NCBI GenBank assembly: GCA_963798085.1
Contig: CAWCRS010000001.1
Span: forward strand, 256,001-320,000
Source: an uncultured Gemmatimonadales bacterium
GTDB lineage: Bacteria > Gemmatimonadota > Gemmatimonadetes > Longimicrobiales > RSA9
DNA: 64,000 nucleotides
Direction: 5' to 3'
The notes beneath the pieces were generated by a model. That model ran no database searches. It saw only the letters and a program-made list of their open reading frames with translations, and was not told the origin of the DNA. A program made the position numbers and the translations under genes. This document shows, piece by piece, positions 55,842 to 64,000 of this stretch. Numbering within the stretch: the stretch's first letter is position 1; every line of letters begins with the position of its first letter.

Positions 55842-57038
55842 ATGCGCCTCCTGACGATACTTCTGCTGGTCCTCCTGACGCCCCGACTCGGCCTGGCGCA
55901 GGGACGCTTCGCGAGCGTGACAACCATCGGACGTGTCGATTCCGTCCATTCCGCGACGCTCGGCGAAACACGGCCGTACCTCGTCTACACGCCGCCTTCC
56001 TACGGTGATACCACGGCCTCGCCGCAGCGCTACCCGGTCCTCTACCTGCTCGACGGCGACGCGCACTTCCAATCGGTAACGGGATTGATCCAGATCCTCG
56101 GCACGGGTGTGAACGGAACGTACGTCGTGCCCGAGATGATCGTGGTCGCCATCCCTAACACGGACCGAACGCGCGATCTCACGCCAACGCACACGGAAAC
56201 CGGCTTCGATGGTCAGCCCAATCCGGGATTCAGGACGAGCGGCGGGATGCTGAAGTTCTTCACCTTCATTCGCACCGAGCTCATTCCGCGCATCGAAGCG
56301 CAGTACCGCACGATGCCATTCCGCGTCTTTGTGGGACACTCGCTCGGTGGAATCACGACGATCAACGCACTCTACGAGATACCGCAGACCTTCAACGCGT
56401 ACGTGGCCATCGACCCGAGCCTCTGGTGGGACAACCAGACGCTGCTGCGCAAGGCGAAGAACTACTTCGAGACCGCGCGGCTCGAGGGCAAGGTGTTGTA
56501 CGTGGCGCAGGCCAACACACTGAACCCGGGAGATACCAGTCGCAACCTGCATTTCGAGTCGATCCTGCAGTTCAACGCGCTCATGCAGGCGTATGACAGG
56601 AGCGGCATCCGCTATGCGTACCGGTACTACGATCGCGACGATCACGGCTCCGTCCCAATGATCGCCGAGTACGATGCGCTCCGCTTCATCTTCGACGGAT
56701 ACAAGCTGCCGCTGCTGCAGGTACTCGACCGGCCGAGTCTGCTGGTGGAGCATTTCCGCAAGGTGTCGGAGCGTCTCGGTGCGACGTTCACACCGTCCGA
56801 GGGAATGGTGCGACAGCTCGCGGAGATCGAGCTGTCGCGTGACACCGCCAACGCGATCGAACTGGCTGAGACCCGCGTGCGATTGTATCCGGAGAGCTTC
56901 CGCGCGTACGAATTCCTGGGCGACGTCTGGGCCGCGCGCGGTGACCGGCCGAAGGCCCGCTCGTACTACGAGCAGGCGCTCGCGAAGAGCTCGAACAGCG
57001 TGGCCATCCGCGAGAAGATCGCCAGGCTCGGGCGCTGA
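55842..57038 (+). CDS. Secreted alpha/beta-hydrolase-fold esterase with C-terminal TPR
   Basis: YPVLYLLDG, DRTRDLTP, GHSLGG, DPSLWWD, DHGSVP; TPR-like tail. Confidence 0.9.
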   Translation: MRLLTILLLVLLTPRLGLAQGRFASVTTIGRVDSVHSATLGETRPYLVYTPPSYGDTTASPQRYPVLYLLDGDAHFQSVTGLIQILGTGVNGTYVVPEMIVVAIPNTDRTRDLTPTHTETGFDGQPNPGFRTSGGMLKFFTFIRTELIPRIEAQYRTMPFRVFVGHSLGGITTINALYEIPQTFNAYVAIDPSLWWDNQTLLRKAKNYFETARLEGKVLYVAQANTLNPGDTSRNLHFESILQFNALMQAYDRSGIRYAYRYYDRDDHGSVPMIAEYDALRFIFDGYKLPLLQVLDRPSLLVEHFRKVSERLGATFTPSEGMVRQLAEIELSRDTANAIELAETRVRLYPESFRAYEFLGDVWAARGDRPKARSYYEQALAKSSNSVAIREKIARLGR

Positions 57039-57115
57039 AGTCGGTCAGCTGCTGGCATGCTGTCGGACCATTCACTGCCGGCATCCTGGAGCACCATTCC
57101 AGCTGGTTGGCATGC

Positions 57116-57262
57116 TTTCGGACCAGCTTGGCGTTCTTGCGTTCCGCCACGCTGAGACGTGCGTGCGACCCCCGCGCACATGATTGCCCCGTTTTCATGC
57201 CGTCCTGAGCCGCGCTGATCGTCCAGTCGGCCGGAAGTAAAGAATGCCATGCTGGTCCGACA
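57116..57262. repeat. 147-bp palindromic element, copy 1
   Basis: TCGGACCAGCTTGGCGTTCTT...TGCCCCGTTTTCATG...AAGAATGCCATGCTGGTCCGA. Confidence 0.9.
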
Positions 57263-57340
57263 GGGCCTGGCCAGCCCTGGGCCTGGGCTGCCGCGTCTGC
57301 GTCAGCGCAGTTGATCGGCCTTGCCGTCGGCCACGGTCTG

Positions 57341-57565
57341 TCAGCCGTGCTCGAGCTGCTCCGCGAGTTGCATCAGCTCGTTCGCACGCTGGCGGGCCAG
57401 GTCGGCCACCGTTGAACGCCAGCGCTCCGGAAGCAGCTCCCGCTCGCGCTCTGTGTACGCGCGCGCCGACTGGATTGCGGTGAGCGGCACGCTCAGCTGG
57501 CTGGCAATGTCATCGAGTGTGTAGACGTCGACGGTGAGGGTATCAATCGCAGCTGCGAAATTCAT
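57341..57565 (-). CDS. 74-aa protein with probable helix-turn-helix
   Basis: GAGGGGGAG RBS-like sequence; YTLDDIASQLSVPLTAIQSAR fits an HTH pattern; amphipathic C-terminal helix. Confidence 0.7.
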   Translation of the reverse strand: MNFAAAIDTLTVDVYTLDDIASQLSVPLTAIQSARAYTERERELLPERWRSTVADLARQRANELMQLAEQLEHG

Positions 57566-57637
57566 TTCTCCCCCTCATGAATAATGGGGTCGCCCAGTCC
57601 AAATGTACGGCGCTCCAGGGCAGCGCGCCCCATTTCT

Positions 57638-57784
57638 TTTCGGACCGTCCTGGCATTCTTGCGTTCTGCTCCACTGTCGCATGGCCGGGACCCGCGCTGA
57701 CATTTCTGCCCCGTTTTCATGTAGGTCGCGGTCGCATCGATAGCCAGAGCGGCCGGAAGGAAAGAATGCCAAGACGGTCCGACA
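57638..57784. repeat. 147-bp palindromic element, copy 2 (direct orientation to copy 1)
   Basis: TCGGACCGTCCTGGCATTCTT...TGCCCCGTTTTCATG...AAGAATGCCAAGACGGTCCGA. Confidence 0.9.
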
Positions 57785-58024
57785 TCCAACAGGCCTGCAC
57801 TCCGCGCGCCGCGCAGTAGCGCATCCAGCCGCTCCGGGTCGAGCCGCCGCCCACGCCCGAACTCACGCGGGTCCGTGTCGCTCCCTTGCCCCGGTCCGAC
57901 AAGAACCCGCGCAAACAGAACCATGCAACGACGGTCTGACAGTCGCGGGGGCCGGCCATGGGAAACCGCTCACCGGGACCGTCGGCAGTGCAGCAACCTG
58001 TCGTGCCACCCCTCCGCCCTTGCG

Positions 58025-58055
58025 GCCAAATAGATATGCCATTTATATATTTGGC
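58025..58055. promoter_or_regulatory. AT-rich inverted repeat, candidate PadR operator
   Basis: GCCAAATAGATA-N7-TATATATTTGGC (11/12 complementary), 80 bp upstream of the PadR start. Confidence 0.6.
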
Positions 58056-58134
58056 GCTTAGTCTTTCGACCGGCCGGATGCGCCGGCGCCAGCTGCAAGG
58101 TTCGCACGTCCACTCGACGCACACAGGAATCGCA

Positions 58135-58542
58135 ATGCCCAGAAACTCGCCGAAGCCCACGCAGCCGCCGGCTCCGCTGACGCCGCTCACACCGTTGACG
58201 TACCACATCCTGCTCGCGCTCGCGGATGGCGATCGTCATGGCTACGGCATCATTCGCGAGATCGAGGAGAAACTGGGCGAGGCGGCGTCACCGAGCACGG
58301 GTGCGCTGTATCTCGCGCTGCAGCGCATGGAGGATACGGGCCTGGTCGAGGAGTCGAGCCACCGGCCGGAGCCCGAGGAAGATGACGCGCGTCGTCGCTA
58401 CTACCGCATGACGGCGATCGGGCGGGCGGCCGCGCGCGCGGAGAGCGAGAGGCTGGCGTCGCTTGTGGGTGTGGCCGCTGCGAAGCGGCTGGTGACCGGC
58501 GCCACCGTTGCGGCATCACTGCGGGGGCCGGGTCGCTCATGA
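58135..58542 (+). CDS. PadR family transcriptional regulator
   Basis: ILLALADGDRHGYGI, GALYLALQRME..GLVE, RRRYYRMT..GR. Confidence 0.95.
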   Translation: MPRNSPKPTQPPAPLTPLTPLTYHILLALADGDRHGYGIIREIEEKLGEAASPSTGALYLALQRMEDTGLVEESSHRPEPEEDDARRRYYRMTAIGRAAARAESERLASLVGVAAAKRLVTGATVAASLRGPGRS

Positions 58543-61241
58543 ACGGCGCGAGCGAGCGCGTGTCGCTGTGGCGCGCGGCGCTGATGCTTCTGTTCCACGT
58601 CGGGCTGCGCATCTATCCGCCGCGGTTCCGCGAGCGTCATGGCGGGCAGATGCTGGACACATTCAGGCAACGGCTGCGCGCGCGAACAGGGATGTTCGCA
58701 ACCGCTGGATTCAGTGGACGGGAACTGATTGGACTCACGGTTCACGGAGTGCTGGCACGCATGCGCCAGCCCGCCGGCCCGGAACCGCACAGGAAGCGGA
58801 GAAGAATGGGAATGGCGACACTGCTGCAGGATCTCAGGTTCGCGCTGCGCACGATCAGTCGCAATCCGGGCTGGGTGGTGATCGCGGTCACCGTGCTGGC
58901 ACTGGGCATTGGCGCCAACACGGCGATCTTCTCCGCGATCGATACCATCATGCTGCGTCCGCTGCCGCTGCATGATCAGGGGCGCATCGTGATGGTCTGG
59001 GAGAAGAATCCGGAGAAGAACTGGTACAAGGCGGTAGCGGCGCCCGCGAACATGTACGACTGGCGCGAACAGGTGAAGGCGTTCCAGGACGTTGCGGCGT
59101 ACACGGAGTTTGGCGCTGGCACGCTGACCGGGCATGGGGACCCGGCCATTCTGGTCGGCTCGCGCGTGACCGGCAACTTCTTCAATGTGGCGGGCGTGCG
59201 CCCGGCGCTCGGTCGCACCTTCCGCGAAGAGGAGACGTGGTCGGACGCGGCGCCTGTGGTGGTCCTGAGCGATGCCCTCTGGCGCGGTAGATTCGGCGCC
59301 GACCCGGCCATCGTAGGCTCGACCATCACGCTCAATGGCAAGGACTGCCAGGTCATCGGCGTGATGCCGGCCAGCTTCGATTTTCCTCGCCAGCACATGG
59401 ATATCTGGGGCCCCATGGGGTGGGATCGCAAACAGCTCGCGGACATTTCCTTCCGCCGCGCGCACTGGCTGCGTGTCATTGCGCGGCTGCGACCCGGCGT
59501 CACGCTGAAGCAGGCGGACGAGCAGCTGCAGGTGGTGGTGAATCGACTGGCGCACGACTATCCGGAGACCAACCGCGTCATGGGCGCGGGGATCACGCCG
59601 TTGCACGAGTTCCTGGTGGGTGACACGCGCACCCGCCTGTTCATTCTCATGGGCGCGGTCGGCATGCTGCTGCTGCTGGCGTGCGCCAATGTCGGCAATC
59701 TCGCGCTCGTGCGCGCATCTGCCCGCCGTCGCGAGATGGCGCTGCGCACGGCGCTGGGCGCAGGCCGGCTCCGCATTCTGCGCCAGGTACTCACGGAGAG
59801 CCTGATCATCTCGCTGACGGGTGGCGTGCTGGGGCTGGGCCTGGGCGTGATCGGTCTGCGGCTGATCATCCGGGTACGCCCCGGGGAGCTTGCCACGCTC
59901 GACACCCTGACACTCGATTATCGCGTGCTGGCCTTCACCTTCGCCGCGGCGCTTGCCGCCGGCCTGCTGTTCGGCATGTTGCCTGCTCTGCGCAGTGCGC
60001 GCTCGGATCCGGGCGACACACTGAAGGACGGCTCTCGCACCGGGACCATGGGCCGCAGGAGCCTGCGCGCCAGCAACGTCCTCGTAGTATCGGAAGTCGC
60101 ACTCGCCATGCTGCTGGTGACCGGCGCGGGCCTGCTGGTACGCAGCTTCACCGCGCTGCGCCACGTCGACCCCGGCTTCCAGACGCAGAATCGCCTGCTC
60201 GTCGATATCGCCCCATCGGGCGCATCGTACAAGACCGCAGCCAGTGTGCTCACATTGTACGACGGACTGCAGCAGCGGCTGGCGGCGCAGCCCGGCGTCG
60301 TGTCGGTCGCGATCACCAGTGCCGTACCGCTCGGGAACTCCAGCTACACGAGCGACTACGTCGCGGAGGGTCGTCCCGCTGAAGGTTATGGCACCGAAGT
60401 GCTGCACCGCAGCGTGTCGCCTGATTATTTCGAGTCCATGGGTGTTCCCATTCTCTCCGGCCGCGGTCTGGCCGACACGGACCGCGAGGGCACAGAGCCG
60501 GTACTCGTCATCAACAATGCGCTGGCGAAGAAGTACTTCCCCAATGAGGATCCCATCGGCAAGCGGCTGGCATTCGACAAGCATCCCAACGCCCAGACGC
60601 AGTGGTATCGCATCGTCGGCGTAACCGGAAGCGAGCTGCAGAACGGCGTCGGCCTGCCACCGCAGGTGGAGGTCTACCGAACACTGCGTCAGGAGGCCGC
60701 GGGCTTTGTCACGTTCATCGTGCACACACGTACGGACCCGCTCGGGCTGGTGCCGGTCGTGCGGCGCGAGCTGCGAGCCATCGACCCCGCGCTTCCGGTC
60801 TTCTCGGTGAACACTCTCGACGACGTGTATCGAGCATCACTCGCGCGCGACCGCTTTCTGCTGCTGCTGCTGAGCGCGTTCGCCGCAACAGCACTCGTGC
60901 TCGCGGCCGTCGGCATCTACGGCGTTGCATCGCAGGCGACGAAGCGGCGCACACAGGAGATCGGCATTCGCGTGGCGCTGGGCGCACGTACCGGTCAGGT
61001 GATGCGCATGATCCTCGGACAGGGCGCCGTTCTCGCCGGCGCCGGCATCATCACCGGCGTGGTGTTGTCGCTCGCGCTCTCGCAGGTCCTGCGGGGTGTG
61101 CTCTTCGGCATCGGCCCGCGCGATCCGCTCACCTTCGTCGCCGTGCCCGCCGTACTGGCGCTCGCGGCACTGCTCGCGTGCTGGATCCCGGCTCGCCGGG
61201 CTACGCGCATCGATCCGGTGGCGGCGCTGCGCATCGAGTAG
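58539..61241 (+). CDS. Duplicated MacB/FtsX-type ABC permease (ADOP family)
   Basis: QDLRFALR, LALGIGANTAIFS, LLLACANVGNL, RTQEIGIRVALGA, IPARRATRIDPVAALRIE; ATGA overlap with PadR. Confidence 0.95.
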   Translation: MNGASERVSLWRAALMLLFHVGLRIYPPRFRERHGGQMLDTFRQRLRARTGMFATAGFSGRELIGLTVHGVLARMRQPAGPEPHRKRRRMGMATLLQDLRFALRTISRNPGWVVIAVTVLALGIGANTAIFSAIDTIMLRPLPLHDQGRIVMVWEKNPEKNWYKAVAAPANMYDWREQVKAFQDVAAYTEFGAGTLTGHGDPAILVGSRVTGNFFNVAGVRPALGRTFREEETWSDAAPVVVLSDALWRGRFGADPAIVGSTITLNGKDCQVIGVMPASFDFPRQHMDIWGPMGWDRKQLADISFRRAHWLRVIARLRPGVTLKQADEQLQVVVNRLAHDYPETNRVMGAGITPLHEFLVGDTRTRLFILMGAVGMLLLLACANVGNLALVRASARRREMALRTALGAGRLRILRQVLTESLIISLTGGVLGLGLGVIGLRLIIRVRPGELATLDTLTLDYRVLAFTFAAALAAGLLFGMLPALRSARSDPGDTLKDGSRTGTMGRRSLRASNVLVVSEVALAMLLVTGAGLLVRSFTALRHVDPGFQTQNRLLVDIAPSGASYKTAASVLTLYDGLQQRLAAQPGVVSVAITSAVPLGNSSYTSDYVAEGRPAEGYGTEVLHRSVSPDYFESMGVPILSGRGLADTDREGTEPVLVINNALAKKYFPNEDPIGKRLAFDKHPNAQTQWYRIVGVTGSELQNGVGLPPQVEVYRTLRQEAAGFVTFIVHTRTDPLGLVPVVRRELRAIDPALPVFSVNTLDDVYRASLARDRFLLLLLSAFAATALVLAAVGIYGVASQATKRRTQEIGIRVALGARTGQVMRMILGQGAVLAGAGIITGVVLSLALSQVLRGVLFGIGPRDPLTFVAVPAVLALAALLACWIPARRATRIDPVAALRIE

Positions 61242-61329
61242 GCGAGGCCCGCGCGCGGCCGCCGCCGGACTGCGGCCCGGTATCCTGAGTCACGGCGCCT
61301 CGAGGCCGTGCTGGCGGAGGTCGCAGGCC

Positions 61330-63840
61330 TCACTCCGCGCGCAGCGCCGTCAGCGGGTGCAGGCGGGCCGCGCGCAGGGCGGGCGGCATGCCGGCGGCAG
61401 ACGCCACAGCGAGCATGGCCAGGGCCGCCGCCGCAATCGCCAATACGTCGTTAGCGGAGACCCCGAACAGCAGACTGCTCACGATGGGTCCCGCCGCAAT
61501 GGCTGCCGGAACTCCCACCACCAGGCCCGCCAGCGCCAGCAGCGCAACCTGTCGCAGGATCAGCCACAACACCGACAGAGGCTGTGCGCCCAGCGCGATG
61601 CGCACACCGATCTCCGACGTGCGGCGCGAGACCGAGTACGCGGTCACGCCGTGCAGCCCGATGCTCGCCAGCAGCAGCGCGAACAGGCCGAAGGCGGCCA
61701 GCAGCTGTGTGAACACACGCTCCTTGCCCGTGGTCCGCGCCATCTGCTCGAGCTGTGTGCGAATCTGCACCACGGGCAGATCTCGGTTCGCGTCCGCCAC
61801 GGCCCGCCTGATCCCGGGCTCGATGCGCGCGAGCGGCGCGTCTGTCCGCAACACAATGTGGTGACCGCCGTAGCCGTCGCGCTGCAGCGCCGCGTCGTAC
61901 ATGGTCGGCCGGACCGCGGACCGTTGCCTGTCGTAGCGACTGTCGCTGACCACGCCGATGATCTGCACTTCGCGTTTCCCGACCCGCAGCACGCGGCCCA
62001 GCGGCGAGACGCCGCCGAACAGCTGTTGCACGGCAGTCTCGTTCAATGCCGCGACGGACGGGCGTTCGGGTGTGTCCTGGGGCCCGGGCATGCGCCCCGA
62101 CAACAGATGCATGCCCATGGTCTCGACGAAGTCCGGGCCCACCGCGTTCATGTAGAGGTCCTGCTCACGCCCGTCAATCGTGATGCTGGTGTTGGAGGTG
62201 AGCCCGCTCAGCAGCGCGTTCTCCACCAGCGTGGCCGAGCGCACGCCCGGAACCAGACGCAGGCGCTGCAGCAGGTCCGCGTACAGCGCGGGGTATTGCT
62301 CGTGCGGCCGGCCCGTGTATCCGGGATCCACCTGGAACATGACCAGGCCGCGTGGATCGAAGCCCAGGTCGACAGCGTTCAGGTTGGCGACCGTGCGCAG
62401 CAGCAGCGCCGCGCCCACGAGCAGCGGCACCGTCAGCGCGATCTGGAACGCGATGAGTGACCGGCCCAGCATCAGCTTCGGCCCGGCGCCGCCCATAACA
62501 CGGTGTTTGAGAAACGCTCCGGGGTCCACAGCGGCCAGGCGCAGCGCGGGCAGGAGCCCGAACAGCATCGTCGCCCCGCCGCAGAGTGCCGCACACAGCG
62601 CCACCACTCTGGCATCCACCGCGGGACGGAGCGCAATCGAGCCGAAGGCCGACGAACCCAGACCGTCAGTCAGCAGTGATGCAAGCGCGCCGCGCGTCCA
62701 GAACAGGATCAGGATCCCGCACAATGTACCGCACACGGCGAGCACGAAACCCTCCAGCAGCGTCTGCCGTATCAGTCGCGTCCGTCCGCTGCCCAGCGCC
62801 CGCCGCACCGCCATCTCACGCTCGCGTGCCACACCGCGCGCCAGCATCAGCGTGGCCAGATTCACGCACGCGATCAGCAGCACCGCGCCGACAACGCCCA
62901 TCAGGATCCACAGCTGACGGCTGGTGTCGGCGCCTACGGGCTGAGGTCCGCGCGCGCCCGGCGCCAGCAGCAGAACCGGCGGCGCGCTGGCCCCTGCGTT
63001 GGCCGGCGAAGGCGCAGAACGGAACGCAGCAGTCAGGTTGCGCATCGCAGCGGGCAGGGCGCCGTGGTCTGGAACCCGCGCCATTACGCGCAACCAGAAG
63101 ATGTCGTCTGCCGTCAGCAGCGACTCGCCGTGAAGGCTCCACTGCGCCTTGACGCGCGGTTGCGCCATCAGGGGAATCGTGATGTCCGTCAGCGCGAAGA
63201 AGCCGCCATGCGACAGCCCTTCGAAGCCCTTGCCCGTCACGCCCACGACTTCCGCCGGCACGCCGTTCACGCGGATCGTGCGACCCAGCACCGCGCGATC
63301 GCCGCCGAACGCTCGCATCCAGAATGAGTAGCCCAGCACCGCGGCCAGTGGCGCATTGACATCGTTGTCCGCTTCCGTCAACCCGCGGCCGAACGCCATG
63401 GGCGGCTGCAGCACCGTGAAGTAGCGACCATCCGCGAACGCGCCACCCGCCACCACCGCCGGCTGATCGCCCGCGGCCACACTGAGTGCGTTCACGAAAT
63501 TGAACGCGAACAGCTGCGCGCCCGGAGCCGCATCACGCATGGATCGATAGAGCGGGTAGCTGAAATTGCTGCGGTACGACTCGCCGCTCGCCGGATCGCG
63601 ATAGGAGCTGGATGCCACCTGGCTGATCTTCAGGTCGCCGGAACGCGCCCAGTACGCGATCACCAGCTGCTCCGGCCGCTGCACCGGCAGCGGATCCCGC
63701 AGCATGTTCGTGATCGTGCCGAATAACGCGCCGTTAGTCCCGATCCCGAGCGCCAGCGACAGCACCGCGACCAGCGTGAACCCCGGACTGCGCGCCAGTA
63801 CGCGCAACACGTACCGCAGATCCGTTACCAGGCCTGCCAT
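61330..63840 (-). CDS. Second duplicated MacB/FtsX-type ABC permease (ADOP family)
   Basis: DLRYVLR, LALGIGTNGALF, LLIACVNLATL, RTSEIGVRIALGA, PALRAARLHPLTALRAE. Confidence 0.95.
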   Translation of the reverse strand: MAGLVTDLRYVLRVLARSPGFTLVAVLSLALGIGTNGALFGTITNMLRDPLPVQRPEQLVIAYWARSGDLKISQVASSSYRDPASGESYRSNFSYPLYRSMRDAAPGAQLFAFNFVNALSVAAGDQPAVVAGGAFADGRYFTVLQPPMAFGRGLTEADNDVNAPLAAVLGYSFWMRAFGGDRAVLGRTIRVNGVPAEVVGVTGKGFEGLSHGGFFALTDITIPLMAQPRVKAQWSLHGESLLTADDIFWLRVMARVPDHGALPAAMRNLTAAFRSAPSPANAGASAPPVLLLAPGARGPQPVGADTSRQLWILMGVVGAVLLIACVNLATLMLARGVAREREMAVRRALGSGRTRLIRQTLLEGFVLAVCGTLCGILILFWTRGALASLLTDGLGSSAFGSIALRPAVDARVVALCAALCGGATMLFGLLPALRLAAVDPGAFLKHRVMGGAGPKLMLGRSLIAFQIALTVPLLVGAALLLRTVANLNAVDLGFDPRGLVMFQVDPGYTGRPHEQYPALYADLLQRLRLVPGVRSATLVENALLSGLTSNTSITIDGREQDLYMNAVGPDFVETMGMHLLSGRMPGPQDTPERPSVAALNETAVQQLFGGVSPLGRVLRVGKREVQIIGVVSDSRYDRQRSAVRPTMYDAALQRDGYGGHHIVLRTDAPLARIEPGIRRAVADANRDLPVVQIRTQLEQMARTTGKERVFTQLLAAFGLFALLLASIGLHGVTAYSVSRRTSEIGVRIALGAQPLSVLWLILRQVALLALAGLVVGVPAAIAAGPIVSSLLFGVSANDVLAIAAAALAMLAVASAAGMPPALRAARLHPLTALRAE

Positions 63841-64000
63841 GTTCACCTCGGTTGTGCGTTCCTCTCATTGGACATGGCGGTGAGCCCGAATGGTTGCCAC
63901 ACCGCCTCCGGGATGCATCCGCCGAGGCAGCCATCGGACCGGCCTCTCCGTTCCCCTCGCGGCCGCCACGCCCATCGACATGATCCATGGCGGCCTCCCG

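Follow-up and report, generated by a model that had tools for sequence, protein, structure and literature searches.

Bacterial MITEs mobilized by DDE transposases are gene-less elements of 100-300 bp, bounded by terminal inverted repeats (TIRs) and sharing their ends with an autonomous partner. Closer still to the repeats analysed here are TIRtrons, in which a RAYT-like Y1 gene, the TIRYT, is flanked by TIRs rather than by REPs (Di Nocera et al. 2013, PMC3733652). The accessible text of that report describes TIRs that are also dispersed as dimers, clusters and single copies, states that different enzymes carry different TIRs, and notes that TIRYT genes and TIR families are not obviously correlated. 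TIRYTs have been equated with subclass 2.1.2 of the TnpA-Y1 enzymes (Quentin et al. 2018, PMC6006769), which corresponds to RAYT Group 1 (Bertels et al. 2017, PMC5581495). Subclass 2.1 as a whole is the second largest Y1 group, represented in 14.9% of species, and no REP-like sequences are reported for it in the sections available to us; its DnaA-like tail, according to a suggestion made there, may have no part in target recognition or may be directed to the fork (PMC6006769). In REPIN/RAYT systems, a single-copy Y1 enzyme is flanked by an extragenic repeat whose dispersed copies comprise inverted doublets with a preferred length as well as singlets and tandem remnants (Bertels and Rainey 2011, PMC3116915). 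The portions of these four papers that we could consult give neither biochemistry nor a settled role for the DnaA-like tail of subclass 2.1.

Here, we analyse two palindromes in a 64,000-nucleotide stretch (the window; G000:C1:256001-320000) of a 6.2-Mb genome, hereinafter the source genome, or G000. As in the TIRtrons and REPINs outlined above, the repeat flanks a single Y1 gene and is scattered as extragenic inverted pairs and single arms. The enzyme displays the motifs NH[YF]H, Y[IV]HLNP and SS and the C-terminal HTH_23/HTH_28/DnaA_C-like (Bac_DnaA_C) domain of subclass 2.1.2, which likewise lacks GT[AG]G REPs (PMC6006769). By contrast with the TIRs described in the available text of PMC3733652, the end tag is CGGAC rather than GGGGWSAS, although the latter is not obligatory for a TIRtron because other TIRs in that report lack it, and the family is large (218 arms), with quantised lengths and phased AA/TT steps. 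Unlike REPINs as presented in the parts of PMC3116915 at hand, the arm has neither a GTAG (GT[AG]G) foot nor a short palindromic REP, and lengths are many, in 10.55-bp steps; the spacer also shows no pairing or covariation in G000 and the related genome G005, a difference partly bridged by the arms of another relative, G438. The picture drawn for subclass 2.1 differs as well, in that a cognate repeat family exists here and its phasing favours recognition of duplex ends. Like DDE MITEs, the window elements are gene-less, TIR-bounded and share their ends with an autonomous partner, but they lack target-site duplications, the partner is an HUH enzyme, and the interiors are highly diverse (median identity 53%). 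The repeat class is already in print and the window finding alone is ordinary, whereas the length quantisation, its phase across genomes and the shared AA/TT register are apparently new: neither duplex action by a TIRYT nor helical quantisation of TIR or REPIN dimers came up in a literature consisting mostly of non-subscription papers.

Palindromes of the window and their family

The first-pass annotation described two colinear copies, 57116-57262 and 57638-57784, and their gap-free alignment is borne out, at 71% identity. The core of copy 1 (Table 1) consists of two inverted TIRtron arms of ~25 bp and dyad-symmetric subterminal motifs which, counted from each end, are AT at 41-42, G.C.C at 49-53 and AT at 62-63. 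The half-site described to the left is present too, in the form of a direct repeat that represents a decayed arm. Farther right, an AT-rich near-palindrome at 58030-58056, upstream of padR, is likely an operator or promoter.

Table 1. Features around the two palindromes (window coordinates)
Feature	Position	Strand	Remarks
Esterase-TPR gene, left neighbour	55842..57038	+	
Decayed arm remnant	57054..57070	+	Left junction of copy 1, partly duplicated in tandem; matches 57109-57125 at 16/17
Mini-element copy 1, core	57119..57259	.	141 bp, CGG..CCG; arm equals the ends of the TIRYT element L001:1389-2442
Gene for 74-aa small helical, probably HTH-like protein	57341..57565	-	Bystander; weak wHTH match, E 0.011
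Mini-element copy 2, core	57641..57781	.	141 bp; same orientation and 141-bp subfamily as copy 1
Extra decayed arm right of copy 2	57919..57938	-	5 mismatches in 20 against the arm consensus
PadR regulator gene, right neighbour	58135..58542	+	Ahead of MacB/FtsX permease

A profile of the arm matched 218 sites in the source genome at a score of at least 20 and none in the reversed-genome control. These arms form 92 inverted pairs (two arms less than 400 bp apart) and leave 34 unpaired, 24 of which have a paired element no more than 400 bp away. All but two of the pairs (90/92) are outside genes according to our rough gene calls. Measured from CGG to CCG, the pairs span 125-309 bp, and 45 of the 92 fall at 141-143 bp; the exact colinearity of the window copies is therefore real, but it is the norm of the family and not a peculiarity of this locus. 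Indeed, the window pair is ordinary and slightly more alike than average, with identities of 70% overall and 60% in the interior against family medians of 66% and 53%. The supposedly invariant centre marks the 141-bp subfamily but differs in most family members. In the same vein, the change from AGC/GCT to GTC/GAC is present in the stems, but the selection for pairing read into it is not supported, as there is no family-wide covariation; the AGC-type change occupies both arms in one of 92 elements, the window's own, and a single arm in 9.

No target-site duplication accompanies the dimers (0/92 at 3-8 bp; 2-bp matches at the chance level, 6 against 6.5), and none of 3 bp flanks the autonomous parent elements (0/32), in keeping with an HUH enzyme and not with a DDE one. 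The 141-bp subfamily has 4 members on contig C1, one of them beginning 71 bp beyond the window end. Density across the genome is very uneven, with 41 pairs on C3 (1.1 Mb), 14 on C7 (1.9 Mb) and 1 on C2. A dispersed pair of elements, C3:448616 and C3:840875/841055, 392 kb apart, has interiors 94% identical and similar first flank bases and is, by its sequence, the most promising candidate for recent copying.

Several features of the surroundings were also observed. An element end lies no more than 5 bp after a stop codon in 16 of the 48 elements outside 141-143 bp (parent included) compared with 3 of 45 in the main class, by our own gene calls, the chance per end being ~0.016. A GATATATCG-like motif stands just outside one end in 12 of 93 elements, and the flanks of the long-class elements are G-rich, read inward. 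An internal ATGG-N20-TAGAAT-like motif, defined after viewing the data, recurs in 12 of 40 long elements, mostly at positions 92-95 from one end and five helical turns inward of the ATGG of the arm; it resembles a -10 box, but only 5 of the 12 point at a codirectional gene, and it was rejected as the promoter of the next gene. PadR and MacB/FtsX permease genes, of the kind present at 58135-63846 in the window, are expanded genome-wide (82 and 165 paralogues, respectively) and account for 16 of 162 element-flanking genes, with 8.4 expected.

Pairing was assessed in 35 non-redundant members of 141-143 bp by comparing symmetric columns with a column shuffle. Complementarity stayed at the shuffled value in the arms (0.807 against 0.821) and in the interior (0.450 against 0.448 and 0.426 against 0.433), and arm covariation was absent from G000 (35 and 40 elements) and G005 (14 elements). 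In G438, the two arms of each dimer do covary at positions 23-45 (0.82 against 0.67, 0/1000), which fits hairpin pairing or arm-templated copying. Folded as RNA, whole elements give z of -4.8 to -6.4 on each strand; stripped of the 26-nt arms, interiors across the family fold no better than shuffles (mean z -0.3), and RNAalifold pairs only the outer arms of the 35 members. Rfam returned no match to the window at gathering thresholds and 2 chance rows at E<=10. A blastn search of 57040-57960 found no match in phage and plasmid sequences, and the variable parts have almost no matches in the source genome outside the family.

We also looked for signs of movement. Orthologues of the esterase gene occur in G010 and G023, and the regions that follow, inspected by eye, carry no such element; they provide no clean empty site, because the downstream genes there are different. 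The G010 orthologue is followed by an unrelated tandem repeat of ~60 bp (L288:2600-2780). Three soil-metagenome contig sets cover the region in scraps, with one joint connecting 57150 to 57750 (33-nt side, 85% likeness); most likely, this joint is another copy of the family, so that it is no evidence of excision. Derivation of the dimers from the parent by deletion was considered and rejected: among the matches listed, only short, chance-level ones link the interiors to the parent, and since the interiors are unlike the parent's, the dimers are not simple internal deletions.

The 74-aa ORF reported between the copies exists, its HTH-like character resting on the weak wHTH match given in Table 1. 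Its product has 3 full-length distant relatives (40-44% identity); a word search matched only the protein itself, and WXG100-like leads from the Atlas were dismissed as being at or near the chance level, the other rows being hypothetical proteins. Together with G000:C8:559801, C5:764186 and C2:244088, it forms a small family of helical proteins of 74-105 aa, with several paralogues in the source genome and no Pfam family above cut-off. Its paralogues are unflanked, at distances of 4.5 and 12.4 kb to the closest arm. Bracketing by consecutive elements within 3 kb is shared by 10 genes, which encode 74-640 aa.

Partner enzyme and its relatives

The window was described as devoid of a transposase, and the matching enzyme indeed turned up elsewhere, on contig C8. 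The sole PF01797 match in the source genome (4 candidates scored) sits there between two otherwise unpaired arms. The parent element, L001:1389-2442, is 1054 bp long, has inverted ends made of the same arm as the window palindromes, and is placed between two permease-like genes. The 338-aa transposase narrowly passes NF047646, the NCBIfam model for REP-associated tyrosine transposases (80.9 bits, cut-off 80), and carries the motifs NHFH, YVHLNP and WSS (SS), with H59, H61 and Y118 invariant in 36 aligned homologues. The best structural match of its predicted model is TnpA-REP (4ER8, E 1.3e-6). The C-terminal HTH is recognized as HTH_23 in 13 and as HTH_28 in 6 of the 36 members, and the top folds for the tail are DnaA domain IV, with TM of 0.72-0.75 at an E of only 0.19-0.25. 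Given that the motifs and the HTH tail agree with the keys published for the subclass, as far as the accessible text of PMC6006769 sets them out, the parent is, judging from sequence, a TIRYT/TIRtron encoding a Y1/HUH tyrosine transposase with a C-terminal HTH, of TnpA-Y1 subclass 2.1.2. Close homologues are labelled Longimicrobiales.

Members of the enzyme clade occur in 34 of the 72 additional genomes of the family. We examined 37 loci, 28 from the 71 matches listed and 9 others, L012 and L306 being one locus. TIRs scoring at least 17/24 were found in 32 of the 37, L012/L306 scored 16, and 3 gave none. All begin with CGGAC (GGGAC in two arms), keep a constant spacing to the Y1 gene and differ at positions ~7-23; they share CATG near 40 and CCCC near 50, the dyad motifs seen inside the window elements. 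Cognate-arm patterns searched in 18 genomes revealed at least 2 short dimers in 13 and no pair in 4; the remaining genome, G028, was uninformative because the pattern used there did not match its own TIRs. G001, a 91% complete genome of the same genus, lacks both the clade enzyme and the paired pattern, and the paired pattern of the window occurs in none of 60 relatives, as expected if arms are enzyme-specific. L013 (G440), L305 (G465), L012/L306 and 7 G439 pairs come from genomes flagged as unpublished.

Two further observations concern these loci. At the gene-proximal ends of L093, L098, L099 and L295-L322, the transposase ATG lies ~75-80 bp from the end, by eye, and apparently 6-7 nt after a -10-like hexamer without an obvious RBS, which suggests leaderless transcription. 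L096:1308-2265 (G341) contains a more distant Y1 gene with GGGGTCAG-type TIRs and with doublets that are short and closely spaced, as in the classical form of TIRtron.

Length and sequence phasing

Dimer lengths outside the main class are periodic at 10.55 bp (R 0.756, 0/5000 jittered nulls; 45 pairs outside 141-143 bp, with 2 that contain an internal duplicated arm dropped). The periodicity persists when only the 33 distinct lengths are used (again 0/5000) and when one motif-sharing subfamily is left out (R 0.758); 1085 intergenic gaps used as a control give R of 0.018. The lengths of the autonomous elements show no significant phasing (354/5000). The period and phase obtained for G000 were then applied unchanged to a held-out set of 98 dimers, paired by hand, from 13 further genomes, with the provisos that G005, G438 and G439 had been viewed beforehand and that genomes related to one another are not independent samples. 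Of 51 length clusters, 30 lie within 2 bp of the predicted phase, compared with 19.3 expected (8/20000 nulls). For lengths up to 262 bp, the count is 27 of 40 (0/20000), and above this length the signal is lost. The phasing holds when G439 is omitted (36/61, 0/20000), and the test on globally distinct lengths is weaker (572/20000). Among individual genomes, G449 is off phase (mean cos -0.31), and G452 and G443 are unphased.

The same period is apparent within the elements. The interiors of the 40 long elements are nearly all unique in sequence. Inside these elements, AA/TT steps return every 10.55 bp and keep the register of the invariant TT of the arm (0/400), and the same AA/TT phase is found in 23 dimers of G005 and G438 (0/400). 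The outside flanks of the long elements show AA/TT phasing at about half the amplitude (0/400), and part of the signal may thus reflect host curvature.

Discussion

Taken as a whole, the evidence makes it likely that the palindromes are non-autonomous, MITE/REPIN-like TIR dimers of the TIRtron on C8. An MITE-like origin, one of three options put forward initially, was thus essentially right: the window copies are 2 of 92 dispersed pairs with the ends of the C8 enzyme element. That this enzyme made and spread the dimers is itself likely; points against it are the lack of signs of movement, interiors unlike that of the parent, and the missing correlation of TIRYT genes with TIR families in PMC3733652. 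The nick would fall at the conserved CGGAC tag and proceed through a phosphotyrosine intermediate, and the arm-specific positions ~7-25 might be read in duplex DNA by the tail, which resembles DnaA domain IV. The length steps of one helical turn hint that the enzyme may grip the ends on double-stranded DNA: the two ends would come together across a short, bent loop of duplex, after which the HUH core would nick at CGGAC, and because the ends must share one face of that loop, only lengths differing by whole turns would persist. We would stop just short of calling probable this part of the scheme, in which the tail reads the variable arm in duplex and the ends meet across a bent loop ahead of the nick. 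The enzyme may build new mini-elements by clamping its two ends around host intergenic DNA that is already curved; this would account for interiors that are both unique and phased and for the abutment on stop codons. The 74-aa gene is probably a bystander, enclosed by elements that either inserted independently or are old local copies.

The other two options, a structured RNA and a one-gene cassette, fare poorly. An ncRNA that presents two variable guide loops on a fixed scaffold, akin to bridge or TIGR RNAs, would accord with the fixed length around a variable interior and with the strong folding of the whole element. However, the lack of covariation and of interior folding argues against it, the lengths span 125-309 bp, the would-be guides match nothing in the phage and plasmid sets and almost nothing elsewhere in the genome, and Rfam has no counterpart; moreover, the ends are those of a transposase gene and match a known REP/MITE-type class, and covariation failed to emerge as more copies were added. 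The RNA reading is already largely refuted, and we consider it highly improbable. The cassette, in which the two copies delimit a mobile unit with the 74-aa gene, as a composite element or as attC-like sites, could draw on the identical orientation and subfamily of the copies, on the 10 genes that lie between consecutive elements, and on the prospect that the outer ends might, in principle, be substrates of the clade enzyme. Yet the copies are only 60% alike inside, the paralogues of the gene are unflanked, the unit has no second copy in the genome, and the similar bracketing of 10 genes counts against it as well; this reading, too, is improbable. Terminal inverted repeats with phase-dependent short loops are textbook DDE behaviour, the activity of short DDE mini-transposons being periodic with length, and one could imagine MITEs of a DDE transposase with TG..CA-type ends, the Y1 gene lying between two arms by chance. 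The missing target-site duplication speaks against this, and the pairing of arm and enzyme throughout the clade, where 32 of 37 loci have their own CGGAC TIRs, each arm different and matching the dimers of that genome, refutes it unless a DDE element with these ends exists; of all the readings, we give this one the least credence.

A different mechanism for the same family and enzyme has to be taken more seriously. In a REPIN-like route, the arms would pair as an ssDNA hairpin on the lagging strand, and the 10.5-bp steps would arise later, via binding of host nucleoid proteins or insertion into curved intergenic DNA. All characterised Y1 enzymes work on ssDNA, and this need counts against duplex action (PMC6006769, in the text accessible to us); furthermore, the arms are able to pair and do covary in G438, the flanks of the long elements are phased too, and some genomes are off phase. 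Set against this are the lack of covariation in G000 and G005, interiors that are unfolded, unlike REPIN spacers with their common compensatory changes (PMC3116915, available portions), a hairpin loop offering no obvious reason for quantisation at 10.55 bp, and the identical AA/TT phase in 23 dimers of two other genomes. Given the ssDNA requirement of Y1 enzymes and the covarying spacers of REPINs, as documented in those sources, the hairpin route with later phasing is a live rival, possible if on the doubtful side. Our own proposal on this point is correspondingly tentative: the TIRYT clade could consist of HUH transposases that act on double-stranded DNA, the tail bridging two arm-specific duplex sites over a bent loop of whole helical turns. 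Such duplex synapsis or DNA capture, if true, would be unlike the mechanism of IS200/IS605 TnpA or of TnpA-REP.

Within the clade, a single CGGAC tag is combined with many natural enzyme-arm pairs that differ in specificity, and the duplex-loop reading predicts that activity oscillates with element length at 10.5 bp. If it does, HUH transposases would not be confined to ssDNA hairpin substrates, and the clade would provide enzymes that are compact (~320 aa), orthogonal to one another and free of target duplication.
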